Source: Clostridia bacterium (lineage in GTDB: Bacteria > Bacillota > Clostridia > Christensenellales > DTU072). Taken from it: 64,000 nt of DNA. A program made the position numbers and the translations under genes. Below, piece by piece: positions 10,217 through 27,787 of the stretch (positions are counted from its first letter, which is position 1; every line of letters starts with the position of its first letter). The notes under the pieces were generated by a model, which was given only the letters and a program-made list of their open reading frames with translations, ran no database searches and had not been told where the DNA came from. The DNA is taken from NCBI GenBank assembly GCA_045535785.1, contig JAZSMH010000060.1, positions 66,560-130,559 on the forward strand, written 5' to 3'.

Positions 10217-13200
10217 TTATTTGCTGTTCTTTATTTCTCTTATTGCCGATCTCTCGGTTTCTCTAGCCGTAACTTTACGTCTATGTTGTAGGGGGTTAAG
10301 GATAAGTACGACTACTATTGCTATCAATATAATAGCTAGTGAAGCGAGGATAATTACGTAAGTGTAGTTAAACTCTGCTAGTCCGAATACAACCGTACCC
10401 GTTGAACTTGACGCGTAGAAGGTAAGGTAATTGCCTTCTCTTACGTAGGATATATTCTGTCCTTTTAGCGCGCCGTCGAATTCTACCGTGAACTCTTTGT
10501 CAAGATATTTTTTAGGAATCTCGATACAAATCTTGTATTGGTCGGAATTGATGGTAGGATTGTCGTTAACTAAAATGCTATACGCTACTGCTCTTGCTTC
10601 TACGCCTAGCATCTTGGTCCAAATGCTAGTTTTGTTGCTCTCTAGCTTGACGGAATTGAATTCTACCGTTGTTCCGCTTACAAAACCGTTCTTGGTGCTG
10701 AGAATATAGGATGCGCTTTGTTTATCCTGAACCTTGTTGTTATAGATAGTAACCTGCTTTTCACAAACGGGTTCTTCTACAGCGTAGTTAGTCGCTTGTA
10801 AGCCTGATACGACGTAATTGGTGATGGTTACGTAGTGCTTGCCGACGTTGGTTTTGTTCTCAAAGGTGGTTGCTTCCATGCGTAGCAATACTTCGTCGCC
10901 GTATAGTGTGCCGTTAAGTCTACCGCTTATTTCTACCGTCGACGTGCCGTCGTAGACTTTGTCTTTAACCTCGATATCGCTTACGGTAAGAGCTTTTGGC
11001 TTAATCATAAATACCGCGCTTATTTGGTCAGCTTCGTAATTCTCGTCGTCGATATATACGGTGATGTTGTAGGTGCCTGCATCGGTGGGCATCGTGGTAT
11101 TGAAACCTTGGTATACGATATAGTAGCTTACTCCTGCAGGCGTGGTGGTGATGATGGGTGCTACTACGCTACCGTAAGTTTGTCCCATGAGCGTATCTTG
11201 ATGGAATTCTATATTCTCTACCGTGCCCTTGGTTACCTTGTATATAATGGTGCGCGTTGCTACGTAGTTATCGTGTACGAGAGTAACGGTTAAATCGTAG
11301 GTTTCTATATCGCTAGGCGCTACGAATGAATCGTAATGGGGGCCTGTACGCGACGTGTATCTATAAATAATAGTCTTGTACATGCTGTCGGCGTCACGCA
11401 TTAGATAGGTGCGTTTGTCACCTACGTGATTAGCGTCGTACATCTTTACTTTGACGTCTACGGCTTTGCCGTACGTGGTGGTATAGGTGGTTACTTCTTG
11501 GTTATCTGCGCCGACAAATTCGATATCGATAACCTTTTTGTTAACTACGTAACTAAATTCGTAAACCTCCGAGGTGTAGTTATCGTCCTCTATCCAACAG
11601 GTGAAGTAATACGTGCCTGCGTTAATTATATCGCCGTTAGAATACTTCTTGCCTTCGTAGGTGGTGTCGTAAACTACCTTATTGCTCAAATGTGATGGTG
11701 CCGTTACGAATACTAATTGCGTAAAGTCGGCAGGGGTGCCGTATTCTACGTTATTGGAAGTAACGAGTACCGTTGCTATACCCTTATTAATCATAATATC
11801 AACGTAACCTACGTAAGTAGCGAAGTTGACGCTGTCGGTGGGTATGAACTTGTATTGAACGGTCTTAATGCCCGATTCGGTAAATACCATAGCGGACTGT
11901 ACAAAGTCAAATGTGCCTTGTACGACGTTATTGAAACCTTCGTAATATACCTCACCGCCACCGAGAGCAGATTTGCCTAAGCTTTCGCCTACCGAGATAC
12001 TTACGGCGCTAGGATCGGTGACTTTCTTCGGGACAGCCTTATAAATAACGAATATAGGTGCGGTGCCGTTAGCCGTTGCACTTACCTTTACGTCATAGTT
12101 ACTGTCAATAGAGGTTACTCTCAATTCGTAGTTGCCTGCAGCAACGGGATCGGATACGTAATTACCCGTAGTGCCCTTATATTCTATCTTCAAGGGTACG
12201 TTAGCTGGGGTGACGACGTAGCTTATATCGCTAGCCTTGGACGCACCGTTATATTTTGCGGAAAGCGTTGTAAACGTAACGGTTGCGGTAGCTTTGGCTA
12301 CTACTACGGTGATTTCGCAATTTACCGACGAATAGTTAGCATTGTTGGGAATGAATACTAACGTTACTTTTTTGCTACCTGCGTCGGGAATAACGTCAGC
12401 GTATTCTTCCGTTACTTGGAATTTACCCTGTACGTCTATATCGCTACTCGTTACCTTGCCACTGTCGTCAAATCTAAGTTCGCCGAGCTTTTGACCGTAT
12501 TTTAGGTTATAAGAACCCGTTTCGTCAGTAGTAAATAGCGCGCTAGGTGCGTTAATTAAGGTAACTGACTTAGGATTAATGATAAACGCAAATTCTTTGT
12601 TGGTGAGTGCGTAGTTGTCGTCGGCAAGGACTACCGTAACGACGTAGTTACCGGCGCTTTCTGGTAAGACGGTGCTTTGGGTAACGCTCGACGAATGATA
12701 GTAGAGCTGGTAGTCAAGAGCAATACTCATCTTGGTATCGCTGTCTATAAATCCTACCTCGGGCGCGGATATGGTTGTGCCGTAAACGTATACGTAGGAG
12801 CTTTGACCTGTGACGAGAGTTACACTCTTGGGACTTACCTTATATTCTAGCACCGCTACACCGCTCATATATTCGGTGTCAACGGTTACTTTGACGTGAT
12901 AAACGCCTGCGTTAAAGACGATATTAGAGAGATATTCGCCGTCGGGTGCGGATGCCTTCTTGAATTCTAGCGAGTATTGATACGAACTAAGTACCGTGTC
13001 GAGCCACTTGATGCTAACCACGTTGACGGTGGCTGAATCGTATACGTCACTATCCTTAACTAACGATAATTCTTTGCTTACGTCGCGCTTGGTGATGGTA
13101 AAATCAATCGTCTTGACGCCGTAGTATTGATTTATTTCGTCCTTTAAGTAGATTACTACGCTGTAGGTGCCTATTTCTACACCTTGACTTTCGTTGCCTA

Positions 13201-16200
13201 ACGCATCGTAGATTTTTACACTAAACGCGCTGTCGGCTATCTCTAATTGCGAGTTGCGTACCGTTATATCTAAATTTTCGGGTGAAATTGCTTCGCCATC
13301 GTATGATTTGAAGGTTTTACCTACTATAATATCGCTTTCGCTTACCGATACGTAACGGTTTGATTTTACGGTATTTTCAAAATAATAGTTCTTGGTAGAT
13401 ACTACTATAAATATATCACCATTACCCGCGTTATCGGGCATAAACATTATTCCTACGGTAGAAACGTCGTCGGTGTATATAATCGAGCCGTCTAAGCTCA
13501 ACTCGCCACCCTTATTAATTATGCCGACTAGCATATTTCCTTTTTTATCGTAAATATTGAATATATAATCGGATGCAAGTGTGGGCACCTCTTCAAATAC
13601 GATTGCTTCTGCGGTATAGTTACTTATATCTACCTTGTTAACGATACCGTCGAAAGAAATGAAGCCGGTCATTACGTTATAGATATCAAAATCGGTAACT
13701 TTGCCACTAATTAACTTGTAAACTACTTCTATTTTTTCGCCAACACAAGGAACGTAGTTAGAGCCTTGCTTAAACTCTAACGTACCGCAAGCGTTGAGAG
13801 ATTTTACCATATCGTTACAGGTGCTGCAACTTGCATCAACGGGTACGAACGATACGGTGAATTCGTCTAGCGTTGCGCCGTAGTCGAGGCTATCTCCACC
13901 CGACGTAGGTCTTACTACTATATTAACTGCGCAATCGTGCGAATCAACGGTAGATACTCCGCTGAAAGTGGGAATTATTGCATAGCTCGTTGCGTCTTCT
14001 GCTGAATAATCCGTCCAATCGCTACCGCTTGCCGTATTGCCACTTGCTAGAACGTTACCGTTAATTGCTAGCGAATCTTTGCCGATTACGTTAACGGTGA
14101 TTGTGAACGTAACGGTCTTGTATAGAAGGGTGTCGGTAGGTGTGAAGGTGACGTTGATTTTCGTAGCGTTTGCTTTGGCAAACGTCACGTTCTCTACTTG
14201 GAAGGTACCCGCTATGTAAGAACCTGTGGACTTAATAACGGCTCTACCGCCCGATACGTCTGCGGTGGTGATTTCGTCGCCGATCTTGAATACCTTATCC
14301 GTGGTGGGTAATACCTCGATATAAGGTGTACATTCGGTTACTTCAAGTTCGTAATCCCACGTTCTTTGACAAATATAGTTCTTACTAGATACAACGGCGC
14401 TTACGATATACGAGCCCTTTGCTCTAGGACGGTTAGCAGAAGAATTGTAACTTACGCTAACGGTGAAGTCGTTGTTACTTACCGCGTAGTCGTATAATAG
14501 GCTATTGTCGTAGCTTACTTCTACGTAGTGATAGGTGTTGTCGTATTCGATAGCGAAAACTTCGCTCTCTAATATCTTGGAGCCTTGGTTAACTCCGTCT
14601 ATCGTGTATATATACAAAAAGTCTGCTTCGAGAACACGTTTGTCGATAACGATGTTCGTGATGCTTGAAGTACCTAGATAGTTGCTTGAAGTGGGCTCGA
14701 AACGATATTCTACTTCGTGCGAGCCTACGTTAAGGGTGTTGATACGGTCGAGCTCAATAAAGAAGGTACCCTCTACTTCCTTATCGTCGTATCTACAATA
14801 TACTCTACCGTCTTCTTTTACGGTAGGTGCGTCCGTCGTATTGTAGACGTAGTTATTGAATTGAGGTGCAACGGTGATATTAACGCTTGCTTTTTGTACA
14901 GTTAGCGTAATTATCTCCGAACCCTTATAGTTGTTATCGTTAACGGTGATCATGACTTGGTATACGTTAGCGTCTAGTGCGCCTAGTCCTGCTAGGGTGC
15001 TAGGAGTATACTCTTGACCATCTAATTTGTACGCATATTCTAGTCCTAATCCGTAGGGCGAGGTGTATGCATCGAAGGGAATATTGTCCTGTCCCGTATA
15101 AACTACGCTAACGGAATCGCTGACGGTGATATCCGCTTGATATTTGTTAATCGTCAATACGTAGCTAGGGTTGAGAGTGCTAGCCTTGATAACCTCGTAA
15201 TAACCGTTGTTATCCTCTGCGTGGAAGTTAAGGTAAACTTCGTACGTACCTGCATTAACGGGAAGGGTATCGTACCTAACTCCGTTAGAATCTTCGTAAG
15301 TAAGGGTACATTCTGCAATATTCTTACCTAGATCGACGTTAACGATTCTTTGAACGGTATACGTTTGGTTAAGGTTAACGAATTTTACGTCGTTAGAGTC
15401 GATGGATATCATCAAGAAACCTCTAGTGTCCTTAACGGGATTGCAATCAACGGCGTTATCTACTAGCATATAGTTCATACTAGCGGTAAAGCTCATTACG
15501 CATTCGTAGTAGCCTATTTCGCCCGGTGTATAACCTAGAGAAGAATTGTTAACGCGATAGTCGATGGTTATAGATTCGTTAATAGGCGTATCTAAATCGT
15601 CTACTGCGTACGCTTTTACACCGACGTTAAGAGATTTGCCTGCATACGGCTTCTTGACACCCTCTACTCCGTCTATCGTGTAGATTTGATCTCTACTGTC
15701 TGTAGAAACGACTTTGATTACCGCCAATTTTTTGTTAATGGTAAATTCTACGCTTACAGAGCCTTTATACTCGCTATAATCGTCTTCTTCTAATAACGTT
15801 GCCGTAAAGATATAGTTACCGGCGGTAAGAACGCCTTCGGGCATAATTTCACCGTCTTTTCTACTCAAAGTAAGCGCCCAAGGTAAATCTCCTGCCTCCG
15901 CTAGGGATAAAGCGTAAGTGACTACACCCGTTTCGTAAAAATCTTCTTTTTCTTTATTTATTTTGTACGAAAGGTCGCCGTATTCGTAAGTACCGTCAAC
16001 GGATAATGACATAAGGTCGCTTACGTCTAATCTGTTAACCTTCTTATTCATATAACCCTCATTGGAATATTCTCCGTAGAATCTCTCGTAGTTGTGAGCA
16101 TCATTGGGAATAAAGTCAAAGAAGATATTCGTTCCATAATGTGTTATATAGAAAATTTCGCCGGCATGACGTTCGGAAACGACAAATCTACCGCTAATTG

Positions 16201-19200
16201 TTTCGCCACCTTCCGCTACTACCGTACCGTTATAGAAAGTAACTGCCGATATGGGCTTACTGTAACAAACGACGCTACTCTCGTTGGCAATTTCGGGTTG
16301 TTGCGTAACGGTAAGCTGTGACTTCTTAATAATTATTGGGAACGTAACGGTACCTGCGTAGTTATCGTCGGCAACGGAATAAGTAACGGTATATTCGCCC
16401 GCGATAAGATTATCGAAAATAACGTCTTCGCCCTTTTCATTCTTGTAAGCAAACGTACCTCTTAATCTCGATAAGTCACCGTCGCCATATTTGCTACCGG
16501 AATAGCTCAATAAGGCGTAGAGTTCGTTCTCTTGATATACTTTGTACGCTTCGTTATACGTTCCTTCACTGTTAAAGAACACGTTAAGACGTTTTTTGTC
16601 GACGGTAAGTAGACAGCTGTTAGCGTAGACGTCTTTGTAGTTATTCTCATCCTGATGTGTGAGGTGAATCTCTACGTTGGTTATACCTGCAACAACGATA
16701 ACGTTGGTGCTAAGTGAATACTCGTATTGGCTCGGTTCAACGTATAAATATACGTTGTTACCTCTCTTGTAGTATTCTATACTATCGTCGCTAGGCAAGG
16801 TATTGTCCGTTGAATATAGGATACCTACCGTCTTGGATACGGTGAGGTCGTCGATGCTTTCTACCGTGGACTCGTACTCGATATTATCTATCGTTACTTT
16901 GGTCCAATCGAGATTAGCCTTGCCTACGAAAATATCTTTTGGGGTATAAATAAAGTCGTAATTAACTCTATCGTCGGCTACGAAGCATATATACCACGAA
17001 TACGGGGATATCTTATATTGAGCGTCTTTATACTCTTGCATATATGCGATATAGTCGTCTTCCGATAGATTCTCATTGTCGGGATTATTCGCTTTTTGCT
17101 CTTCTTTCCATTCTTCATACTTGCAGTATACGATCATCATTTTACCCGTAACGTTAACGATAGACGAGGTCTTACGGGTGGGAGTGATATATACCTGTGC
17201 AGCGTATTTTACCGTATAGGTATCGCTAATACGTATTGACTTGAAGGGTTGACCGTAGCTTATATTGTATTCGTTACTTAACGCGCTGTTGTATACGTTG
17301 GGCCAAACTACGTTGACGTGTGAGCTTTCGCTGCCCGCTCTTTTGATAGTATATAGTGCGTAGGTACTACCCTCGTGGTTAGGATCGTTTACGTCGATTT
17401 TTACAACGTATTCGCCTGCGCTTTCGGGAAGATTGACCAAATTACGCATGTCTTTTTTGTCTACTATATTGCTATCCGTCATCATGTCGACGATTTCTTT
17501 TCCGTCTACATAATAGTAGAAGGTGTAGTCGAACTTTATACTTGCAGTAACGTCTACACCGTTCTTGAGTGCGGTGGGGTTAGGCGTTGCTTCGTACTGA
17601 TATTCAAACTCTTCTTTGTCGCATTTTACGTTAAGCAAGACTTTGTTTATCTTCATAACGTAGTAGTGAGTGCCAGTGTAGTTACATTTGCTCTCGTTAA
17701 TAACCACCTTGATGACGTAGAGTCCCGATTGGTTAGGAGCGTTAACGGTATATTTTAAATCCTCGAAATCGTCTTCTATACTATCAGCTTCGGCATAGGT
17801 GACGATACAATCCTCGGTAAGGTCGAGATTGGTTTCGCCCTCTTTGGTGCTCTTTACCTTGAAGTTAACCGTTTTGTACTCGCCACTGTACGTGTGCTCT
17901 ACTATACCGTTGACGATTTTGCCACTTCCTTGGTCATTCTCTAACGAAAAGGCAACGGAGTCGTCGTGTCTTACGTAAAGGGTGATAGTTCTCGTAGCGG
18001 GTTCGTAATTGGGGTTGGGGATAAACTCGCCGTTAGCGTCGTATTCAAACTGAACGCTCGCTCTACCCATAGTATCGGTAGTCACCGTTCCGCGTACCGC
18101 GTGGAATACTACGTCTACTTGATATTCGCCTGCGTTAGGACGAGCGTAGTCGGCGCTCGCTCTTATTCCGTCCGATAGTTCGTAATAGCCGGGGATACCG
18201 TCGGAGGATAATTCGGAAACGAATTCGCTTTGGTAATAAGCGGATATTCTGTCGTTAACACGTCTTTTTCCCTCGCCGTCTTTGCCTGCATCTGACCAAT
18301 CCATATCGATTGACGACATGCTTTCGCCGTAGGTAATGGATAAGTCGGCACCCTGCATTAGCGTGTTTATTTTGGGTGTGGACTTGAGAATGGTGAATTT
18401 ACCCGACGTGTTGCCGTAGTACGTGCTATTGTTGGCAATCTCCGCGTAGAAGTAATACGTACCTGCGCTTATGGGGTAATTGCTGTTATTTTCATTTACC
18501 TTTTGCGTCATTTCGGCATCGGTATAGTAAGTAACCGCCACCCTTATCGAGCCTGCAGACACGCCTTCTACTACTGCCTGTGCCGGAACAGTTTTGCTAT
18601 TGCCATCGTAAGGTTGAGGATTGGTTACCGTCTTTATCTCTACTCTTAATTTGAATCTAAACACTAGAACTCTTATACTATCCTCTTCAACGAAGGAATC
18701 GCCTACAATGAAGGTATAAGGAACTTCTTTGGTCACTCCGTTGATAATGAACGGATCGCTGAGATGCTCTAGCGTGGTGGTGTTGTTGGAATACGAACAA
18801 TTACGGCAATCCATACTAACGCCGGTGGTGCTGAATTGGGTAAGGATATAGGTTTTGTACGCAGTACTGTTACGGAATTTTAATCTCAAAGAAATTCTTG
18901 CACCGCGTCTTAAAATGATTTCTCTTTGTTCAATTACTTGATATTTTGAAAGCTTGCCCGAATCGTTAACGGTGGCATAGCTAACCTCCAACTGATTCTC
19001 GTTGACGGTTTCGTCTTCTCCTTCGCCTATTAGATATTTTATTTCAAAAACGTAGTCGGTAACGTCAATTTGAATGAAATATTTGTTAGCGTTATATTGC
19101 GAATTGCCTACGTAGTCGCAGGATACGAGCTCGATGGACCACACGCCGTTAACGGTGTTGACTTTGCTCGAATTGAAAAGCTCAATAAAGAAGCCTTCGC

Positions 19201-20890
19201 CGTACTCGACGTCACCGCCCTCGTCTATGGTACAAAAAACACCGATATAAGAGCCGTCGTTGGAGGGAGCGGTAAGAGAATCGGGATCGGTTATTTCGAA
19301 GCCCGTGCTTTTTTTGTCTATGTTAGTAGTAGGTATCTCGTCACCTACGTAGGTGGTCTTGTAGTAAATTACGGTAGGGCTACCGTCTCTAACCTGGAGA
19401 CTATCATTGCTCATATTGGGAATGGTCGCACTAGTTGCTTCGAGCAAATCGTAGAGTAAATTTAGCTTAATGGGCTTGTTGGTGATGGGATCTAGCTCTT
19501 GTCCTTCGGAGTCGGTATAGAACGTATAGTCACCGCTTAAATACTTCTCGTAAAAGCTATTTTTGTCCATTTCGGGACGGTTGGGGAGCTTGTTATCTAC
19601 GAGAACGGTAAAACTCAAAGACGTATTGGTACCGTTGACCGATTTTTTCGTCGTCCCGTCTCTATATTCTAGATGTGCCGTAACAATAAGCTCGGTTGTT
19701 TCGTGATGACCTGCTACTATTTCGAAACTTATTTTTTGTCCCGACTTATCGGTGCTCGTTAATGCTTTTGCACTGCCCTTATCAATCGACCAATTGATTA
19801 TATACTCGTCTTCTTCCGTGGCGTCTTGTAAATTGACGTCGAGGAATAATTCTCTAAACGCCGTGCCGGTGCCGCCGACTTCGCTTTCACCGTAAGCAGC
19901 GGTATCGAGCTTGATGATAGTGTTATCCTTCCTGATGCCTAGGTCGATGGTGAGCGTGTCGCCCTTGGTTGCGAATTGGTTGTCAAGCGCTGGGTGACGA
20001 TTGTCGCCCGTGATGCTAACTTGCGAACCACCAGCGTTAAAGCTTACGTTGGTGCTGGGCGTAACGTCAAATTGTATGCCTACCTCTTTTATTCTTGCAG
20101 AAAGGTAGCTGTTGGGCTCCCAGCCTGCTAGCGTTACTTGAAAGAAAGAATCAGCATCAAAGGTGTTGGTGACGAGCTCGGTGCCGAACTCGGTGAAAAC
20201 CATGCTGTTGTCGGACATAATGAGATTCTTCGGTTCGTTAACGCCGTGGTATACCTTGCTACTGTTGTAATGAGCGAAGGCTATACGGACGCTATCCGAG
20301 CCAGTGGTATCACTGAGGCCTGACGGGCTACCCATACGGACGTAGGGCTTAGCAACGACTTTGACTAAATCGTCCTTCAAGGCGCGTTTCAAATCGTCGG
20401 AAATACCAAAAGTAAAGTATAACGGTGCAAGTCCAGCGGTGTTGGGTGCCATACCTGAGCTTACGTTAATGGTGAGGCAACTGTTCTCAATTTTGAAGTT
20501 AGTTGCGGCTTGGGTGACGCCTGCTTTACCGATGACGGCGGAGCCTATTTTGTTAAAGGTAGAGCTATCGTTATACGTGCCCAAATTCTGGCCGTCGGCG
20601 CCGTACTCTACGTGAGGCATGTTAGAAATAGAGCCGGTAGTCGCGCCTTCGAAGTTAGTTCTTACGTAAAAATATTTGTGAAGAGCCGAAGAAGGTATAT
20701 ATCCCGAGCCTGTGACGACGTTAGAACTGCCTATACCAGCGTTGACACCCGTGCTCGTAGTCACCGCTAGCGCACTCTGGTCGCTAACTCCTATCGACAT
20801 ATACAGCGTGAATAGCGTTATTACAGCTATAACCCCCGCAATAATTAATCTCATAAGCTTGCTCTTATTAAGATTATTGGTATTCTTCAT
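10217..20890 (-). CDS. Giant surface protein (~3,557 aa) with at least ~20 YGX/'MBG'-like repeats, an N-terminal signal peptide and a C-terminal TM anchor
   Basis: Uninterrupted ORF. The preferred start is the ATG at 20890, with GGAGG 6 nt upstream; the track start at 20917 is 9 codons further up. Signal reads MKNTNNLNKSKLMRLIIAGVIAVITLFTLY. The recurring unit is 'AG.Y.V......(D)NY........I.K..L.V', and the last unit carries KVYDGTSTVEISG. C-terminus: YVIILASLAIILIAIVVVLILNPLQHRRK. Confidence 0.9.
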   Translation of the reverse strand: MKNTNNLNKSKLMRLIIAGVIAVITLFTLYMSIGVSDQSALAVTTSTGVNAGIGSSNVVTGSGYIPSSALHKYFYVRTNFEGATTGSISNMPHVEYGADGQNLGTYNDSSTFNKIGSAVIGKAGVTQAATNFKIENSCLTINVSSGMAPNTAGLAPLYFTFGISDDLKRALKDDLVKVVAKPYVRMGSPSGLSDTTGSDSVRIAFAHYNSSKVYHGVNEPKNLIMSDNSMVFTEFGTELVTNTFDADSFFQVTLAGWEPNSYLSARIKEVGIQFDVTPSTNVSFNAGGSQVSITGDNRHPALDNQFATKGDTLTIDLGIRKDNTIIKLDTAAYGESEVGGTGTAFRELFLDVNLQDATEEDEYIINWSIDKGSAKALTSTDKSGQKISFEIVAGHHETTELIVTAHLEYRDGTTKKSVNGTNTSLSFTVLVDNKLPNRPEMDKNSFYEKYLSGDYTFYTDSEGQELDPITNKPIKLNLLYDLLEATSATIPNMSNDSLQVRDGSPTVIYYKTTYVGDEIPTTNIDKKSTGFEITDPDSLTAPSNDGSYIGVFCTIDEGGDVEYGEGFFIELFNSSKVNTVNGVWSIELVSCDYVGNSQYNANKYFIQIDVTDYVFEIKYLIGEGEDETVNENQLEVSYATVNDSGKLSKYQVIEQREIILRRGARISLRLKFRNSTAYKTYILTQFSTTGVSMDCRNCSYSNNTTTLEHLSDPFIINGVTKEVPYTFIVGDSFVEEDSIRVLVFRFKLRVEIKTVTNPQPYDGNSKTVPAQAVVEGVSAGSIRVAVTYYTDAEMTQKVNENNSNYPISAGTYYFYAEIANNSTYYGNTSGKFTILKSTPKINTLMQGADLSITYGESMSSIDMDWSDAGKDGEGKRRVNDRISAYYQSEFVSELSSDGIPGYYELSDGIRASADYARPNAGEYQVDVVFHAVRGTVTTDTMGRASVQFEYDANGEFIPNPNYEPATRTITLYVRHDDSVAFSLENDQGSGKIVNGIVEHTYSGEYKTVNFKVKSTKEGETNLDLTEDCIVTYAEADSIEDDFEDLKYTVNAPNQSGLYVIKVVINESKCNYTGTHYYVMKINKVLLNVKCDKEEFEYQYEATPNPTALKNGVDVTASIKFDYTFYYYVDGKEIVDMMTDSNIVDKKDMRNLVNLPESAGEYVVKIDVNDPNHEGSTYALYTIKRAGSESSHVNVVWPNVYNSALSNEYNISYGQPFKSIRISDTYTVKYAAQVYITPTRKTSSIVNVTGKMMIVYCKYEEWKEEQKANNPDNENLSEDDYIAYMQEYKDAQYKISPYSWYICFVADDRVNYDFIYTPKDIFVGKANLDWTKVTIDNIEYESTVESIDDLTVSKTVGILYSTDNTLPSDDSIEYYKRGNNVYLYVEPSQYEYSLSTNVIVVAGITNVEIHLTHQDENNYKDVYANSCLLTVDKKRLNVFFNSEGTYNEAYKVYQENELYALLSYSGSKYGDGDLSRLRGTFAYKNEKGEDVIFDNLIAGEYTVTYSVADDNYAGTVTFPIIIKKSQLTVTQQPEIANESSVVCYSKPISAVTFYNGTVVAEGGETISGRFVVSERHAGEIFYITHYGTNIFFDFIPNDAHNYERFYGEYSNEGYMNKKVNRLDVSDLMSLSVDGTYEYGDLSYKINKEKEDFYETGVVTYALSLAEAGDLPWALTLSRKDGEIMPEGVLTAGNYIFTATLLEEDDYSEYKGSVSVEFTINKKLAVIKVVSTDSRDQIYTIDGVEGVKKPYAGKSLNVGVKAYAVDDLDTPINESITIDYRVNNSSLGYTPGEIGYYECVMSFTASMNYMLVDNAVDCNPVKDTRGFLMISIDSNDVKFVNLNQTYTVQRIVNVDLGKNIAECTLTYEDSNGVRYDTLPVNAGTYEVYLNFHAEDNNGYYEVIKASTLNPSYVLTINKYQADITVSDSVSVVYTGQDNIPFDAYTSPYGLGLEYAYKLDGQEYTPSTLAGLGALDANVYQVMITVNDNNYKGSEIITLTVQKASVNITVAPQFNNYVYNTTDAPTVKEDGRVYCRYDDKEVEGTFFIELDRINTLNVGSHEVEYRFEPTSSNYLGTSSITNIVIDKRVLEADFLYIYTIDGVNQGSKILESEVFAIEYDNTYHYVEVSYDNSLLYDYAVSNNDFTVSVSYNSSANRPRAKGSYIVSAVVSSKNYICQRTWDYELEVTECTPYIEVLPTTDKVFKIGDEITTADVSGGRAVIKSTGSYIAGTFQVENVTFAKANATKINVTFTPTDTLLYKTVTFTITVNVIGKDSLAINGNVLASGNTASGSDWTDYSAEDATSYAIIPTFSGVSTVDSHDCAVNIVVRPTSGGDSLDYGATLDEFTVSFVPVDASCSTCNDMVKSLNACGTLEFKQGSNYVPCVGEKIEVVYKLISGKVTDFDIYNVMTGFISFDGIVNKVDISNYTAEAIVFEEVPTLASDYIFNIYDKKGNMLVGIINKGGELSLDGSIIYTDDVSTVGIMFMPDNAGNGDIFIVVSTKNYYFENTVKSNRYVSVSESDIIVGKTFKSYDGEAISPENLDITVRNSQLEIADSAFSVKIYDALGNESQGVEIGTYSVVIYLKDEINQYYGVKTIDFTITKRDVSKELSLVKDSDVYDSATVNVVSIKWLDTVLSSYQYSLEFKKASAPDGEYLSNIVFNAGVYHVKVTVDTEYMSGVAVLEYKVSPKSVTLVTGQSSYVYVYGTTISAPEVGFIDSDTKMSIALDYQLYYHSSSVTQSTVLPESAGNYVVTVVLADDNYALTNKEFAFIINPKSVTLINAPSALFTTDETGSYNLKYGQKLGELRFDDSGKVTSSDIDVQGKFQVTEEYADVIPDAGSKKVTLVFIPNNANYSSVNCEITVVVAKATATVTFTTLSAKYNGASKASDISYVVTPANVPLKIEYKGTTGNYVSDPVAAGNYELRVTSIDSNYDVKVSATANGTAPIFVIYKAVPKKVTDPSAVSISVGESLGKSALGGGEVYYEGFNNVVQGTFDFVQSAMVFTESGIKTVQYKFIPTDSVNFATYVGYVDIMINKGIATVLVTSNNVEYGTPADFTQLVFVTAPSHLSNKVVYDTTYEGKKYSNGDIINAGTYYFTCWIEDDNYTSEVYEFSYVVNKKVIDIEFVGADNQEVTTYTTTYGKAVDVKVKMYDANHVGDKRTYLMRDADSMYKTIIYRYTSRTGPHYDSFVAPSDIETYDLTVTLVHDNYVATRTIIYKVTKGTVENIEFHQDTLMGQTYGSVVAPIITTTPAGVSYYIVYQGFNTTMPTDAGTYNITVYIDDENYEADQISAVFMIKPKALTVSDIEVKDKVYDGTSTVEISGRLNGTLYGDEVLLRMEATTFENKTNVGKHYVTITNYVVSGLQATNYAVEEPVCEKQVTIYNNKVQDKQSASYILSTKNGFVSGTTVEFNSVKLESNKTSIWTKMLGVEARAVAYSILVNDNPTINSDQYKICIEIPKKYLDKEFTVEFDGALKGQNISYVREGNYLTFYASSSTGTVVFGLAEFNYTYVIILASLAIILIAIVVVLILNPLQHRRKVTARETERSAIREIKNSK

Positions 20891-20944
20891 CTGGACCTCC
20901 ACCCGTAAAAAGCGCATAATACGCCCTTATTATTGTCTACATAA

Positions 20945-21272: not shown

Positions 21273-23191
<1,919 letters not shown>

Positions 23192-23209
23192 GATTAAATG
23201 AGAAAATCT

Positions 23210-23243
23210 AAAAGCACGGTACTGAGTGTACCGTGCTTTTATT
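23210..23243. terminator. Bidirectional rho-independent terminator shared by groEL and the convergent WYL gene
   Basis: aaaagcacggtac-tgagt-gtaccgtgctttt, with A/T runs on both sides. Confidence 0.8.
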
Positions 23244-23250
23244 ATCTGCA

Positions 23251-24069
23251 TTAATCGTGACGTTTTGATAAATTTTTTATTTCTATTTCCGACAAATTTA
23301 TCGTAGTTTTTCCTGTGTAATCGTATTCGTAAATCAAGTATTCTAATTTATCAACCGCTTCATCGTTAAATTCAAATTCAAAAAAATCTTTTTTTATTAC
23401 GTTCCTTAACCAACATAGACGAAAAATATGACAAACTTGTGGTTTTTCTTTTTCTAGTGCAAGTAAATATAAAGATCCATCTACATAATTCAAATCTACC
23501 CTGTATGGAATGAGTGAATAATTCTCACCATTAAATGAACAAGTAATTGAACGTTTGTCATCTATCGCATGACATAATACGGAATATTCTTTATTAAAAC
23601 AAATACATTCTCGCTTGTCTTTTCTCATATTTGCATATTCATTGAAAAGGTTGCGCAAATAACTAGTTTTGTTTCTTTGTTGAGATTCTAATTCTTCAAA
23701 AAAACCTTGTAATTTGATTATGTTCGCCTTATTTAATCGAAAATGGAAGGTTTCCCTATGGTAATGCTCGTCGCCATCGTCAAAATAAGAGTAATCAAAC
23801 AAATCATCCATAAAGTCAAGAAGTTTTTCTTGATAGTTTTCTTTTATGCAATGGATAATATTATTCTCCAAATACGCCCTTAAATTCTTCCGCTTATTCA
23901 GTCTATAAAGAATAAGATTGGGAAGTAACTGATTAAAAAAAGAGTTGGGGTTTTCGCTACCGTCAGACTTCTTAAACTCAAAATCGCTAATATCTGCAAG
24001 AAGCTGATAAAAAACACCTTCGCTTACTCTAACACTTAATTTCCCTTGATCTAAATCAAAAGGTGCCAT
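23251..24069 (-). CDS. WYL-domain protein (C-terminal WYL fold; N-terminal ~170 aa unassigned)
   Basis: aa 178-232 read SITCSFNGENYSLIPYRVDLNYVDGSLYLLALEKEKPQVCHIFRLCWLRNV. This fits the WYL pattern (..P..l....g.wYL.a......r.FRl.ri..v). The ATG at 24069 is preceded by GAGGGGAGAG; the track's TTG start is at 24084. The gene is AT-rich. Confidence 0.65.
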   Translation of the reverse strand: MAPFDLDQGKLSVRVSEGVFYQLLADISDFEFKKSDGSENPNSFFNQLLPNLILYRLNKRKNLRAYLENNIIHCIKENYQEKLLDFMDDLFDYSYFDDGDEHYHRETFHFRLNKANIIKLQGFFEELESQQRNKTSYLRNLFNEYANMRKDKRECICFNKEYSVLCHAIDDKRSITCSFNGENYSLIPYRVDLNYVDGSLYLLALEKEKPQVCHIFRLCWLRNVIKKDFFEFEFNDEAVDKLEYLIYEYDYTGKTTINLSEIEIKNLSKRHD

Positions 24070-24143
24070 TTTCTCTCCCCTCAATCATAAATTACTTTTT
24101 TAAACGTTTCTTTGCCGTTTCTATTTTTTTGCACAAATGACGA

Positions 24144-24563
24144 TTATTTATCGTTAATAAACGTATCTATCTCTTCTTGATAAGCATTTTCTGTTAGTTC
24201 ATTCACTATCAAATCACTTACAACGTTAAAATGCAACCAATCTCCAACACCGCCTATCATATAACTTCCGTCTTCTTTTTTATCAATAGATGCTACATGT
24301 ATATAAATATCGTTATCTTCTTCAATTTGTTTTTCAATTACTTCAAATGAACCGATTATTTCTAGATAATGGTTCACCATAAATTGTTTATTTACATTAT
24401 GTTGGTGACAGTAAGCGTAAATCACTGTTTTTTCACCCTGATGTTTAACAAAATCAATATCTAATTCATGTGTGCCATACTTTGCTATAATTTCGTCAAG
24501 TGTCATAATTACTCTCCCTGTATGTGACTTCTTCAACATTCCATCTATGCTTTTGTAATACAA
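24144..24563 (-). CDS. Small acidic hypothetical protein (120-139 aa), immunity-protein-like
   Basis: The ORF begins 3 nt after the stop of the upstream ORF. A better start is probably the ATG at 24506 (MTLDEIIAKYG), which has GGGAGA 7 nt upstream. No motif recognised. Confidence 0.6.
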   Translation of the reverse strand: MYYKSIDGMLKKSHTGRVIMTLDEIIAKYGTHELDIDFVKHQGEKTVIYAYCHQHNVNKQFMVNHYLEIIGSFEVIEKQIEEDNDIYIHVASIDKKEDGSYMIGGVGDWLHFNVVSDLIVNELTENAYQEEIDTFINDK

Positions 24564-24566
24564 ATA

Positions 24567-25064
24567 TTACAATGATATATGCAGCATTCTCTTGATAGCT
24601 TCAATCCTTAATTGTTTTTTTAGACGTTTTCTTGCGGTTTCTATTTTTTTGGTACAAATAGCTCTAACAATTTCTATTTCTGTACAAGAAAAAATTATTA
24701 AATCGTCAAGAAAAACCGTATTATCTTCAAGACATCGAATGGTATTTATGCCTAAACCATTACCACTTAAGAATTCTGCGGTGTCATTATTAAACCACTC
24801 TCTCTTAACTAGCAAATAATCGGTTATGGGTTTGTCTTGTATATATTCCCAACTCTCCCACTCTTCATCAGGGCAAGGATATTTAATAAGCGTAGTGCTT
24901 CTTATCCATTCGACACCATGAAATTTGATCTCAAGATCATTGGGTGTATTGTCGTCTACGTAATATCGAAAAAACGTTATTGTTAGTACGTCGTTTTCCC
25001 ATTTAGCTCTTAAAATTGCACTATCTCCTAATTCATAAGGAAAAATATAATCTTTTTTAATCAT
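24567..25064 (-). CDS. Small acidic hypothetical protein (165 aa), candidate immunity or antitoxin partner
   Basis: The ATG at 25064 (MIKKDYIFPYELGD) has GGAG about 8 nt upstream. It overlaps the stop of the upstream basic protein in ATGATTAA (8-nt overlap). The track start at 25097 is less likely. Confidence 0.65.
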   Translation of the reverse strand: MIKKDYIFPYELGDSAILRAKWENDVLTITFFRYYVDDNTPNDLEIKFHGVEWIRSTTLIKYPCPDEEWESWEYIQDKPITDYLLVKREWFNNDTAEFLSGNGLGINTIRCLEDNTVFLDDLIIFSCTEIEIVRAICTKKIETARKRLKKQLRIEAIKRMLHISL

Positions 25065-25530
25065 TTTCAGCTCCATATAAATGATGATCGGGATCACCCC
25101 TGTGTGTCAGTTCACCATATTTATTATAATAAACATTTTGACCGCTATACTCTTTACTTTTAAATCGTCTATGTTTCGAATTCGTAAAAGGTTTTTCCCA
25201 AAAATCCAACCAATGGTAGTGATGCTTTTTTCCATGCTCTTCACTTCTAATGGTTTGTCCTGTAGACTTTCTTTGAATAACCCTTCCACCATTTTTAAAA
25301 ATTCTTTTTTCTTCCCAACCTTTTTGTATGAGTTTTCTATCGTCTTTCGGCAAATAAGAACCCGAATACACGTGGCGCGCGCGACTCCAACTATTGTATT
25401 GATCCTGTCTAGCATCTTGCGGACGTGATAATTTTTCTATTGCCGTTACCGGTGGATTACGTACTTCTTTGTAATACTCTGGTTTTTGTGATAATTTATA
25501 TACGATTCTATCTATCAAACTTCTTGCCAT
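25057..25530 (-). CDS. Small basic His-rich protein (157 aa), candidate stand-alone toxin or nuclease-like module
   Basis: Strong RBS AGGAGG upstream of the ATG. The sequence is rich in K/R/H and has clusters HGKKHHYHW and DPDHHLY. There is no signal peptide or TM. It is the first gene of a tightly packed cassette. Confidence 0.6.
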   Translation of the reverse strand: MARSLIDRIVYKLSQKPEYYKEVRNPPVTAIEKLSRPQDARQDQYNSWSRARHVYSGSYLPKDDRKLIQKGWEEKRIFKNGGRVIQRKSTGQTIRSEEHGKKHHYHWLDFWEKPFTNSKHRRFKSKEYSGQNVYYNKYGELTHRGDPDHHLYGAEND

Positions 25531-25800
25531 TAATTATAATACCTCCTTTTGTTGAAAGTCAAGTTTATGCTTATATCTATATTCTAGCACGTCAAGATTG
25601 TAAATAATAGCCTACATTTACAAATGTGTTTTGTATGACAAAATTAATACCTATATTGCTATTTTTTTGATAAATATTGTATTGTTTAATATAAATTACG
25701 ATAGTTATGTATGACAATTTTGTCCTACAAAAATCAAATTTAATAAAAAAACAAAATAAATTCAGCGCGTATATCCATACAAAATAATAAAACAAAATAA

Positions 25801-25829
25801 TTGCAATAATGATAAAATAAGTGTATAAT
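25801..25829 (+). promoter_or_regulatory. Promoter of tRNA-Gln
   Basis: TTGCAA, a 17-nt spacer, then TATAAT. It ends 11 nt before the tRNA 5' end. Confidence 0.7.
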
Positions 25830-25840
25830 AGATACGTTGC

Positions 25841-25914
25841 TGGAGTATGGTGTAATGGCAGCACAGAGGCCTCTGACTCCTCTGGCGTAAGTTCGATTCT
25901 TACTACTCCTGCCA
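25841..25914 (+). tRNA. tRNA-Gln (anticodon CTG), CCA encoded
   Basis: Manual cloverleaf: acceptor TGGAGTA/TACTCCT (U1-U72 mismatch). D arm GTGT-AATGGCA-GCAC. Anticodon loop CTCTGAC. T arm GTAAG-TTCGATT-CTTAC. Ends G-CCA. 74 nt. Confidence 0.85.
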
Positions 25915-25947
25915 AAAAAATAACACTCTCGTGAGTGTTATTTTTTT
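25915..25947 (+). terminator. Rho-independent terminator after tRNA-Gln
   Basis: aaaaaaa-taacactc-tcgt-gagtgtta-ttttttt. Confidence 0.85.
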
Positions 25948-26006
25948 ACGTCAAATTCGTAAGAAATTGACTATCATGTCACGAAGTGACTATCATTCGA
26001 GCAAGG
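25942..26006. repeat. Copy 1 of a ~65-bp intergenic direct repeat
   Basis: ttttttacgtcaaattcgtaagaaattgactatcatgtcacgaagtgactatcat, followed by a diverged tail. Contains an internal TGACTATCAT x2. Confidence 0.9.
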
Positions 26007-26136
26007 CGAGTCTAAAAATAACGAATTTGAATGATAGCGTATTGCATACGCATGATAATTCGCTACACTCACATTATGACTCACTGCGTTCGAATTATAT
26101 ATATAGCGGATAATCGTATAGCAAAAATTTGCGTTC

Positions 26137-26201
26137 TTTTTTACGTCAAATTCGTAAGAAATTGACTATCATGTCACGAAGTGACTATCATGCGAGCAAC
26201 G
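26137..26201. repeat. Copy 2 of the ~65-bp intergenic direct repeat (195 bp downstream of copy 1)
   Basis: The 55-nt core is identical to copy 1; the tails differ (tcgagcaaggcgagt versus gcgagcaacggcggt). It is immediately followed by the ggtggcgacc..gcagttg motif also seen in the valS leader. Confidence 0.9.
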
Positions 26202-26344
26202 GCGGTGGCGACCGCAGCGCAGTTGAATAGCAAAGTGTAAAAAAATGAAATATTTTGCTGATTGTTGCGCATATTATCTTTGATACCTTTTCACTATTCA
26301 CTATTACCTATTACTTGCCAAAAATCGACAAGTTTCGAGAGAAG

Positions 26345-26400
26345 AGTGAAAAGTGAAGAGTGAAGAGTGAAGAGTGAAGAGTGAAGAGTGAAGAGTGAAG
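26345..26400. repeat. Heptanucleotide microsatellite (AGTGAAG) x8: 7 perfect units and 1 imperfect
   Basis: Read directly from the sequence: agtgaaa followed by agtgaag x7. Confidence 0.95.
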
Positions 26401-26404
26401 AAGT

Positions 26405-26441
26405 AAAAATCGACAAGCTTCTGTCGAAACTTGTCGATTTT
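26405..26441 (-). terminator. Rho-independent terminator after tRNA-Arg
   Basis: Minus sense: aaaaatcgacaag-N12-cttgtcgattttt, immediately after the CCA. Confidence 0.8.
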
Positions 26442-26518
26442 TGGTACACCCGAGTGGAGTCGAACCACCGGCAACCAGCGTCGGAGGCTGGCACTCTATC
26501 CAACTGAGTTACGGGTGC
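26442..26518 (-). tRNA. tRNA-Arg (anticodon CCG), CCA encoded
   Basis: The reverse complement folds as GCACCCG TA ACTC AGTTGGATA GAGT G CCAGC CTCCGAC GCTGG TTGCC GGTGG TTCGACT CCACT CGGGTGT A CCA. 77 nt. Confidence 0.88.
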
Positions 26519-26716
26519 GTATTGGTGTATTTTGTATTTTTTTCGTAAAAATTATACGATTGATTTTTTGTTTTTTGCGAAATTATATTGTTATTTTTTC
26601 GCGGTTTTTGGCGAAATCGTATTAATTATTTTTTTGTGATTTATGGGCGTATCGTGATTTTTTTACGCAAAGAAAATTGGTTGATTTGCGTAAAATTATC
26701 TTCATCGTAAAGCAGA

Positions 26717-27787
26717 TTATAGGTCGGGGTTTACGTCTAGAGTTAGGTCACTTGCGTCCGCGCCGTCCTTAATTGCGTAGTATGCGCCTATTGCTATCAT
26801 TGCGGCGTTATCGGTGCATAGAATTTTGGGCGGAAGTAAAACTTCTACATTATTTTTTGCGCCCATTTCGGAAAGTTTTTCTCTTAATCTTCCGTTCGCG
26901 CCTACTCCACCTGCTAGTGCAACGCGAGTGGCTTTATGTTGTTTTAGGGCTACCAAAGTGTTCTCTACGAGCATCCCAACTGCTCTTTCTTGGAATGAGC
27001 ATGCTAGATCGGCTTTGTTTATCTCGATACCTTTTTGTTGGGCGTTATGGGCGTAGTTAATGACTGCGGTTTTTATACCCGAATAGGAAAAGTTGAGGTG
27101 TTTTTCTCCCTTATACGGTCTAGGCATAGGGATAGTATCTTGACCTTCTTTGGCTAGTTTTTCTATTTGGGGACCGCCCGGGTAAGGAAGTTCTAACACT
27201 CTTGCTACCTTGTCAAAAGCTTCGCCTGCGGCATCGTCTTGGGTGCTACCTAATACCGTCATATCGTTGTAACTTTTTACGTTAAGTATTTCGGTATGGC
27301 CACCGCTAGCAAGTAAGCAAATGAAGGGAAATTCTAGATTTTCGTGAACTAAAAAATTGGCGAGAACGTGACCTTTTACGTGGTCAACTGCAATTAGCGG
27401 AAGGTTAAGTGCGTACGAAAGTGCCTTTGCATACGACACGCCTACGAGTAGTGCACCTTGAAGTCCTGCACCGTAGGTAACCGCCATAACTTCGATATCT
27501 TCTAGTTTTAACTCAGCTCTATCTAATGCAGATTGAACGAGATTATCGATAGCGAGTATATGGTTACGCGAAGCAATCTCCGGCACGACTCCACCGAAGC
27601 GCTTGTGAATTTCTATTTGTGAACTGATTTCGTTAGCGAGAACTTCTTTGCCGTAAATGATACTGACGGCAGTTTCGTCACAACTGCTCTCTATCGCTAA
27701 AATATAAAATTTTTCTTTATCTCTAACTAGGTTTAATTTTTCTCTAGCAATATCTATATAAGCCATATTTCTCTTCTCAAAAATCAT
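26717..27787 (-). CDS. tsaD: tRNA N6-adenosine threonylcarbamoyltransferase
   Basis: 356 aa, Kae1/Gcp family (ILAIESSCDETAVSI, HVKGH, GGVGAN). Its start overlaps the prfB stop (TAATG). Confidence 0.93.
   Translation of the reverse strand: MIFEKRNMAYIDIAREKLNLVRDKEKFYILAIESSCDETAVSIIYGKEVLANEISSQIEIHKRFGGVVPEIASRNHILAIDNLVQSALDRAELKLEDIEVMAVTYGAGLQGALLVGVSYAKALSYALNLPLIAVDHVKGHVLANFLVHENLEFPFICLLASGGHTEILNVKSYNDMTVLGSTQDDAAGEAFDKVARVLELPYPGGPQIEKLAKEGQDTIPMPRPYKGEKHLNFSYSGIKTAVINYAHNAQQKGIEINKADLACSFQERAVGMLVENTLVALKQHKATRVALAGGVGANGRLREKLSEMGAKNNVEVLLPPKILCTDNAAMIAIGAYYAIKDGADASDLTLDVNPDL

Follow-up and report, generated by a model that had tools for sequence, protein, structure and literature searches.

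A strain-variable four-gene cassette beside groEL in uncultured gut Clostridia: a candidate three-component toxin-immunity module with a predicted WYL1-type regulator

Conflict systems that unite a toxin with its cognate neutraliser and a dedicated regulator are already known, as are conflict systems under the control of WYL-domain proteins. Here we analyse a block of four consecutive, tightly packed minus-strand genes, A-B-C-D (positions 23251-25530), which lies between groEL and tRNA-Gln(CTG) in a stretch of 64,000 nucleotides (nt) from contig JAZSMH010000060.1 of a Clostridia bacterium (assembly GCA_045535785.1). This whole stretch is referred to as the window. The original prediction, made from the window's letters, took the block for an AT-rich accessory cassette of a kind seen in toxin-immunity or anti-phage defence islets. 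The explanation that we favour, with moderate confidence, is that it is a strain-variable operon from a family of three-component toxin-immunity (toxin-antitoxin-like) systems that has not been described before and occurs in uncultured gut Clostridia. The four genes are:

25057-25530, minus strand: gene A, 157 amino acids (aa), isoelectric point (pI) 9.8, 9 His
24567-25064, minus strand: gene B, 165 aa from its own ATG, pI 5.2, its start overlapping the end of A by 8 nt
24144-24506, minus strand: gene C, 120 aa, pI 4.5, separated from B by a 60-nt gap
23251-24069, minus strand: gene D, 272 aa, ATG at 24069, pI 5.4, separated from C by a 74-nt gap

Among described systems, polymorphic toxin-immunity cassettes (CdiA-CT/CdiI, Rhs, LXG and similar), reportedly described by Zhang et al. 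in 2012, combine a conserved N-terminus with exchangeable C-terminal effectors, as in A, and, as at our locus, feature a co-varying cognate gene directly downstream, orphan partners and recombination scars. They differ from it in that here the whole protein has about 157 aa, its 54-aa N-terminal part contains no known trafficking domain and the module includes a dedicated WYL regulator. In hicAB, as in A/B, the toxin gene comes first and is overlapped by the antitoxin gene, and the toxin is small, basic and of alpha-beta-alpha build, whereas our partner protein has no recognisable HicB or DNA-binding domain and regulation would fall to a separate protein. The omega-epsilon-zeta systems consist of three genes, coding for a separate, repeat-binding ribbon-helix-helix (RHH) regulator, a small acidic neutraliser and a toxin. 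This three-gene plan resembles that of A/B/D, but the genes stand in another order, neither the zeta kinase nor epsilon has a homologue here and D adds a predicted WYL sensor domain.

The closest structural counterpart of D is RspWYL1 (hereafter WYL1; PDB 6OAW) of the type VI-D CRISPR-Cas13d system. Its structure joins two RHH motifs in one chain and a helical insert to an Sm-like WYL barrel and a C-terminal dimerisation domain; an Arg in the strand of its second RHH disfavours double-stranded DNA (dsDNA), and single-stranded RNA (ssRNA) is preferred (PMC6547453). For D, too, the model predicts a tandem RHH with a helical insert and, after it, an Sm-like WYL barrel, and both proteins come from gut Clostridia and are encoded beside an RNase effector, a putative one in the case of D. 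On the other hand, D shows no similarity to WYL1 detectable with sequence hidden Markov models (HMMs), is shorter (272 against 385-387 aa) and has no C-terminal dimerisation domain. WYL1 sits by cas13d and a CRISPR array, neither of which is near D, whose neighbours are groEL, A/B/C and tRNA genes (housekeeping genes in relatives). Further, WYL1 prefers ssRNA and its RHH Arg clashes with dsDNA, whereas conserved DNA repeats accompany D, which resembles a DNA-binding regulator.

The regulators BrxR, CapW, DriD and PafBC, with a helix-turn-helix (HTH)-WYL-WCX architecture, have the ligand-sensing WYL barrel in common with D, and their genes, like that of D, adjoin or diverge from the presumed target operon. 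BrxR homologues also co-localise with toxin-antitoxin systems (PMC9122601). These regulators contain a winged HTH and WCX in place of the predicted tandem RHH of D, which has no WCX, and the genes that accompany D belong to no known defence system. Set against these systems, what is new are the three protein families, an RHH-type WYL1-like regulator outside CRISPR, a shared 54-aa N-module that carries unrelated putative effectors, and a predicted effector fold that is unmatched; we found no paper in the literature describing such a module. If the favoured explanation holds, three unannotated families, all limited to uncultured gut Clostridia, together make up one coherent conflict module, for which no database has a name.

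A strain-variable module with an exchangeable C-terminal domain

Conspecific contigs were chosen by identical encoded GroES and then aligned to the window (labels L001-L047 stand for contigs or loci of relatives, and P labels for family representatives). The cassette is absent in five of the seven informative ones (L039, L040, L042, L043 and L047), the flanks of which are 96-97.5% identical to the window. In these contigs groEL is followed by a 284-aa DUF4097 gene and then by tRNA-Gln, and homology to the window ends at 23193 and restarts at 25795. In L041 (the same locus as L004; flanks 98% identical), a cassette sits between groEL and the DUF4097 gene, in a variant form without gene C and with D split into 125 + 135 aa (L004 2333-3166). 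The window has A-B-C-D intact and is missing the DUF4097 gene (23194-25794 versus L039 9921-10906), which adjoins groEL in all six conspecific contigs, cassette carrier included. Universal conservation with synteny does not hold; thus, the block is polymorphic for presence and absence among members of a single species, which bears out the accessory status predicted for it.

The gene layout and composition are largely as predicted. The open reading frame (ORF) list and the sequence agree on four tightly packed minus-strand ORFs between groEL and tRNA-Gln, on a first product that is a basic, His-rich protein of 157 aa, on an acidic 165-aa second product with an 8-nt overlap, and on the gap of about 75 nt before the WYL gene (74 nt). 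The third product is acidic as stated, but its reading as a 139-aa protein after a 3-nt gap has to be given up: the longest ORF (24144-24563) does give 139 aa from a TTG, whereas all homologues begin MTL(D/E) and a GGGAGAG ribosome-binding site lies ahead of the ATG at 24506, which is therefore the start. The AT-richness seen by eye is borne out by calculation, the GC content of the cassette being 0.319 against 0.425±0.018 for other 2280-nt segments of the stretch (z = -6.0), none of which reaches so low a value. The same is true of the different codon use, with GC at third codon positions of 0.21-0.26 in the four cassette genes against 0.37-0.49 in all 29 other genes of the window. As also predicted, we found no integrase or transposase ORF adjacent to the cassette, and none of the four proteins matches a housekeeping family in Pfam, NCBIfam, PHROGs or PADLOC.

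A search of the open reading frames of every locus retrieved, by BLAST and with HMMs for each of the three families, recovered a recurrent trio of A, a partner X and D across about 30 loci from metagenome-assembled genomes (MAGs) of gut Clostridia. In nearly all of them X directly follows A with a spacing of -45 to +20 nt, usually overlapping it. The X proteins are acidic (115-175 aa, pI 4.1-5.2) and fast-evolving, and form at least five sequence clusters that loosely share an N-terminal (F/Y)HD(G/A/C) and a C-terminal F.C..(V/I)E. Of the 27 genome loci, 20 also have a gene of the D family linked to A, which lies either downstream on the same strand or divergently upstream. It closes the operon in the window, L004, L007, L009, L019 and L021; the divergent upstream arrangement is the commoner one (L005, L008, L010, L011, L014, L015, L017, L018, L020, L022, L023, L025, L028-L030, L035 and L038). 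A genome may carry several modules: L014 and L028 belong to one MAG, L008 carries two modules, and A-B is duplicated in tandem (A-B A-B) in L011 5001-6992.

The second module of L008 (3819-5460, other strand) features a type-3 D-like gene divergent from genes for a 134-aa basic protein, which is without the N-module of A described below, and a 113-aa acidic protein. Signs of turnover in the modules of relatives include the split D of L004, a D cut to 78 aa in L001 (7608-7844) and, in L021 (5462-6693), a D with an internal deletion (137 aa) beside an in-frame fusion of C and B.

The A family comprises 111 clusters in a collection of 5.8 billion proteins and 74 representatives among 1.84 billion, all of them of at most 242 aa. 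The D family has about 140 clusters, and the partner-family profile finds 29 proteins; no member of either has a Pfam domain. In a genome scan A was found in 28 species-level genomes, all of them uncultured gut Clostridia/Eubacteriales MAGs from ruminants and humans that are labelled Christensenellaceae, Candidatus Coproplasma, Candidatus Scatosoma and similar. An exact-sequence look-up of A returned no record, and sequence searches of the PDB with A, D and their profiles found nothing. A phage or plasmid origin was rejected, as GenBank phages and PLSDB plasmids contain no relative of A or D, and IMG/VR, scanned with A but not with D, contains no relative of A.

The alignment of the A family divides the protein into two parts:

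25369-25530, minus strand: N-module of A, residues 1-54, with the near-invariant pattern PPxT..EKL.RPQDARQ.QYN.W
25057-25368, minus strand: C-domain of A, residues 55-157 and the stop, a putative toxin domain

The basic 54-aa N-module is almost invariant, in contrast to the far more variable C-domain. Within the latter, H106, W107 and H150 are invariant and R87, K88, S89, R95, H104, Y134, Y138 and G139 near-invariant. The AlphaFold2 (AF2) model of A (predicted local distance difference test score, pLDDT, 89.6; predicted template modelling score, pTM, 0.78) gives the C-domain a helix (H64-69), four antiparallel strands (72-108) and a further helix (H117-128). This predicted topology is compatible with RNases of the BECR (Barnase/EndoU/ColicinE5-D/RelE) fold or of a HicA-like type; in the comparison with the BECR fold, the topology and the conserved His/Arg/Lys of A fit, with A itself giving neither a profile nor a fold match. 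An identification of A as HicA was rejected: hhalign against Escherichia coli HicA (6HPB) gave a probability of 0.2%, and there was no HicA in the top 50 Foldseek matches from the PDB. The C-domain has a confidently predicted fold without a match in PDB or BFVD, and could represent a new effector fold.

Four proteins of 226-242 aa (P0147, P0149, P0150 and P0157) have only the N-module in common with A. With hhalign the modules align over residues 1-54 only (54 columns) at a probability of 99.8% and E = 6e-29, and the C-domains do not align at all. In three of the four (P0149, P0150 and P0157) the swapped-in domain matches PBECR1, a family of predicted nucleases of the Barnase/EndoU/ColicinE5-D/RelE type, over nearly the whole profile, with E-values of 0.002-0.03 that fall below the Pfam cut-off; a PHROGs scan of these variants gave nothing. 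The PBECR1-like variants keep the context of A, namely a divergent D-like gene and an overlapping downstream gene, here of 110 aa. The converse swap, the C-domain of A on other N-termini, is seen in P0160, P0161 and P0169. The N-module co-varies with neither the D type nor the partner, which suggests that it serves a conserved cellular partner or delivery route.

The partner, in turn, follows the C-domain. B-type partners come after an A of the 'HHYHWLDFWEK' type in L001, L004, L007, L008, L009 and L011; a C-type partner is the first gene after an A of the 'HWHWYNWW' type in L005, L013, L017, L021, L023 and L024; and three further C-domain types of A have partner clusters of their own. Across 27 A-partner pairs, C-domain similarity correlates with partner similarity (Mantel r 0.74, reached in 0/2000 permutations; Spearman 0.43) far more than N-module similarity does (Mantel r 0.25; Spearman 0.02); shared ancestry inflates these values, so that the contrast between the two halves of A is their informative part. 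The gene order is A(B-type)-B-C in the window and L008, and A(C-type)-C-B in L021. As the first partner gene fits the resident A type in both orders, the second would be a spare. By this pattern B is the cognate partner of the window's A and an immunity or antitoxin candidate, and C is probably an orphan partner of the other A type. Such non-cognate partners thus take second place both in the window (C) and in L021 (B). Two families proposed by sub-threshold matches of partners were rejected: Imm50, found in 1/20 members at E = 0.06, and DUF6347, with a single match.

The region around C contains a direct repeat:

24601-24651: direct repeat copy 1, 51 nt, at the 3' end of B, 84% identical to copy 2
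24081-24131: direct repeat copy 2, between C and D, a remnant of the B tail, translated CAKKIETAKKRLKK and then a stop

The closest relative, L004, is without exactly the interval between the two copies, and hence without C.

Comparison of loci also revealed mosaics. L019 and L021 resemble the window in D (65-80% identity) and the N-module (67-69%), with a C-domain of just 37-38% identity and an unrelated partner. In L008, L010 and L025 D has diverged (26-28%), while the N-module (61-69%) and the C-domain (67-69%) are close to those of the window, and the partner is B-type in L008 and of another type in L010 and L025. Judged by these identities, the modules appear to reassort independently.

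Putative regulator D and the region upstream of A

The AF2 model of D (pLDDT 87.9; pTM 0.83) predicts a first RHH (beta 10-15, H17-29, H41-70) that is followed by a helical insert, a second RHH (beta 106-111, H114-146), a five-stranded WYL barrel (173-231) and a short C-terminal helix, with only about 40 residues after the barrel. The best Foldseek match of the model is WYL1 (6oaw_A/B), with E-values of 1e-9 to 2e-9 over 286-294 columns and a TM-score of 0.62-0.64 by the query and 0.46 by the target. The barrel, and the barrel only (about 84 residues), also matches DriD, BrxR, PafBC and CapW with a Foldseek probability of 1.0 and a root-mean-square deviation of 1.6-3 Å. The predicted WYL domain is therefore well supported by structure and weakly by sequence: the CRISPR-type WYL HMM of PADLOC matches 9/31 members of the D family (best E 1.2e-5; 0.006 for the D of the window), Pfam WYL matches none of the family, the D profile found no PDB chain by sequence, and Pfam, NCBIfam, PHROGs and PADLOC scans of D gave nothing beyond this weak WYL match. 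The RHH strands, KLSVRVS and TFHFR, show the basic/polar pattern usual in DNA-binding RHH proteins (read against PMC6547453). On the model, we class D with WYL1, as a protein that joins a tandem RHH to a WYL domain. Until now WYL1 has been regarded as a peculiarity of Cas13d systems; the D family would provide it with non-CRISPR relatives, which may reveal the origin of WYL1 and the signals that RHH-WYL proteins sense.

Upstream of A we distinguished the following elements:

25708-25729, minus strand: two adjacent TGT-N3-ACA sites, TGTAGGACA at 25729-25721 and TGTCATACA at 25716-25708, candidate D operators at -199 and -186 from the A ATG
25632-25640, minus strand: third TGT-N3-ACA site, TGTCATACA, at -110 from the A ATG and about 50 nt upstream of the -10
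25581-25620, minus strand: promoter core, with a conserved AAATGTAGGCTATTATTTAC over the -35 region and an extended -10, TGcTAGAAT, at 25589-25581
25531-25573, minus strand: 5' leader, with the Shine-Dalgarno GGAGG at 25546-25542

The upstream regions of five species with a D of the window type align well despite A identities of only 45-76%, and TGT-N3-ACA occurs at -199, -186 and -110 in 6/6 loci with this type-1 D. The sites are present in 0/7 loci with a type-4 D, which instead share GTTGTA..TTGTCAATA..TTGTATAGTGA, and type-2 D loci instead feature two copies of TGTAATACA. Common to the loci of every D type are GCTATT(A)TT over the -35 region, an extended -10 of the form TGnTAnAAT and a leader with a Shine-Dalgarno sequence; the transcription start probably lies near 25574. 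That the upstream repeats change with the D type fits D as a specific regulator of the A operon. Activation, as by PafBC or DriD, would agree with this arrangement too, in which the sites precede a promoter that has no -35 consensus.

The leader itself contains a near-perfect sigma-70 pattern, TTGACT-N18-TATAAT (25533-25562), ending 2 nt before the A ATG, and such a pattern (TTGACA-N17/18-TATAAT) is kept in about 20 loci, where it ends 1-2 nt before the ATG. Because it ends so close to the ATG and encloses the Shine-Dalgarno sequence, it cannot serve as a usual promoter of A. A small leader hairpin just upstream of this pattern, predicted with compensatory changes in 20/23 loci, was rejected as a part of the window locus, the leader of which is not predicted to form it.

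Functional interpretation

We propose that A-B-C-D would be transcribed from the extended -10 promoter under the control of D, which would act on the TGT-N3-ACA repeats through its RHH part. The WYL barrel of D may bind a nucleic-acid ligand, as in other WYL proteins, and thereby alter transcription of the operon. A would be the toxin, built of the family-wide N-module and a swappable C-terminal effector, the latter most likely a metal-independent RNase that would use the conserved His, Arg and Lys. B, translated by coupling with A, would bind the C-domain of A and thus neutralise it. C would be a spare neutraliser for the other common type of A, gained or retained through recombination at the short repeat. 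Two sets of features pull in different directions as to the purpose of such a toxin: interbacterial competition is favoured by the orphan partners and the exchange of cassettes, and an intracellular role as a toxin-antitoxin or abortive-infection module by the small size, the lack of any export signal and the presence of a WYL regulator.

Several observations weigh against this explanation. First, the toxin and RNase reading of A draws on gene context, the domain swap, the predicted topology and the conserved His/Arg/Lys rather than on homology. Foldseek with A against PDB and BFVD gave no match (best E 0.4-0.7), and, as the model has no match in either, the RNase assignment is carried by the swap, the topology and the residues; the 'nuclease-like' label of the original prediction is backed by neither a sequence nor a fold match. 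Pfam, NCBIfam, PHROGs and PADLOC scans give no match for A, B or C, the PBECR1 matches of the swapped-in domain stay below the cut-off, and those of Pfam HicA_toxin to the A family (3/31 members and P0091, E 0.03-0.07) are all sub-threshold. Second, no hydrophobic signal sequence is visible by eye in A, and the N-module matches no known trafficking or secretion domain in Pfam, NCBIfam or PHROGs. Third, the co-variation is inflated by ancestry and has its exceptions in L010 and L025, in which a B-type A is accompanied by another, distantly related partner type. Fourth, D-family regulators accompany other basic/acidic gene pairs too; with such regulators upstream of other pairs, D may be a generic regulator. 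Finally, the neighbours at 25 loci are housekeeping genes and not defence islands.

The last point bears on a tentative alternative, which we regard as possible but rather unlikely, that the cassette acts in abortive infection or another anti-phage response: D would sense single-stranded nucleic acid arising in infection, the operon would be induced or A released from B, and A would stop translation. Many defence systems are under the control of WYL regulators such as BrxR and CapW, which are found beside type II/IV toxin-antitoxin systems as well (PMC9122601), the nearest structure to D is that of a CRISPR accessory protein, and the module is strain-variable, AT-rich and sometimes present more than once per genome, as in the MAG with L014 and L028 and in L008. 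Set against this, no system of PADLOC-DB 2.0 is matched, the WYL HMM on D being the sole component match and A, B and C being without a significant one, in line with the statement of the original prediction that no named system could be assigned. We scanned 111 neighbouring proteins from 25 loci, which matched 150 Pfam families: the 25 most frequent ones are housekeeping families without an integrase or transposase among them, and the PADLOC matches are generic ATPase and radical-SAM cross-hits and one type IIG restriction-modification enzyme, with no system recurring and no consistent defence genes. A mobile-element or defence-island context was rejected on these grounds. The modules occupy unrelated chromosomal sites (beside glycoside hydrolases, cysS/aspS, rplL and groEL) and are more AT-rich than their flanks in 26/27 loci, by a mean of 10 GC points. 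Moreover, orphan partners, such as C here and B in L021, would be unexpected for an abortive-infection toxin-antitoxin pair, and as A and its neutraliser are co-transcribed, induction alone would leave the toxin bound. Of the two functions first envisaged for the cassette, toxin-immunity is the one that the comparative data favour, through the overlapping basic and acidic partners, the Mantel r of 0.74, the PBECR1-like swap and the orphan partner; a defence-island context is lacking.

We consider it doubtful that A is instead a compact polymorphic toxin for interbacterial competition, in which the N-module would export or release A, the C-domain would kill neighbours and D would induce the operon under stress, much as DNA damage induces colicins; B would protect the producer, and C would protect it from the other toxin type of its neighbours. 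Much of the variation described above would be expected from such a toxin: the N-terminus is conserved and the C-domains are swapped, the gene right after A codes for the cognate partner, which changes along with the C-domain, orphan partner genes stand in an order set by the resident toxin type, the central part is exchanged between conserved flanks leaving a repeat scar, and the family is limited to a lineage of one dense gut community. The delivery side of the proposal fares worse, since A has neither a signal peptide visible by eye nor a trafficking domain of the LXG, WXG, Rhs, CdiA or MuF type, no secretion or lysis gene was seen in the module neighbourhoods, all 74 A representatives, at 242 aa or less, are far below the typical size of polymorphic toxins, and D-like regulators are no known feature of polymorphic toxin loci.

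That the operon codes for no toxin at all, A being a small nucleic-acid- or zinc-binding regulator, B and C its acidic modulators and D the transcription factor of a stress regulon, is quite improbable: A does lack detectable similarity to nucleases or toxins, its His/Cys pattern (HxH ... C/H ... H) could coordinate a structural metal and its N-module is basic, but some relatives with an unchanged gene context have a PBECR1-like nuclease domain where A has its C-domain, the partner has split into at least five sequence clusters, an extremely fast divergence next to a conserved A, and presence/absence, copy-number variation and decay (the split D of L004, the deleted part in L021) are typical of selfish or conflict modules and not of regulons.

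Returning to the toxin-immunity explanation, a more speculative extension, to which we give little credence at present, is that the cassette represents a new class of miniature polymorphic effectors, in which a 54-aa adaptor would carry interchangeable RNase-type domains, each with its own neutraliser, under the control of a WYL1-like tandem-RHH/WYL sensor. Besides regulating transcription, the sensor may license the effector directly via the N-module, as WYL1 does Cas13d, and WYL1 would then have been recruited from such toxin regulators of gut Clostridia.

Surroundings of the cassette

The cassette is bordered by the following features:

21273-23191, plus strand: groES/groEL, with groEL itself at 21569-23191
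23209-23241: terminator, a perfect 14-bp stem with a T run; bidirectional, serving both the cassette and groEL
25841-25914, plus strand: tRNA-Gln(CTG), from the Rfam scan

An Rfam scan of 23000-26800 returned two tRNAs and nothing else, and no second copy of the cassette was found inside the window. A 72-aa ORF on the minus strand (23033-23251), opposite the groEL 3' end and the terminator, lies outside the cassette and is a mechanical ORF without support.

A second variable spot is the spacer between tRNA-Gln and tRNA-Arg(CCG) (25925-26440). It contains a 63-nt direct repeat (25942-26004 and 26137-26199, 98% identical) and an array of GAGTGAA heptamers (26337-26415) between the arms of a 27-nt inverted repeat (26318-26344 / 26418-26444). 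Conspecific contigs have other genes in this spacer, for an RNase_T-domain protein and 23S_rRNA_IVP in L039 and for a BRCT protein and IVP in L040, or none, as in L043.

Further away, the window features two giant minus-strand ORFs, at 10217-20917 and 46514-60916, of 3566 and 4800 aa. In related contigs, the counterpart of the 3566-aa ORF has MBG_3 and YDG domains, which points to a protein of the surface type, and measures between 3557 and 3568 aa depending on the strain.

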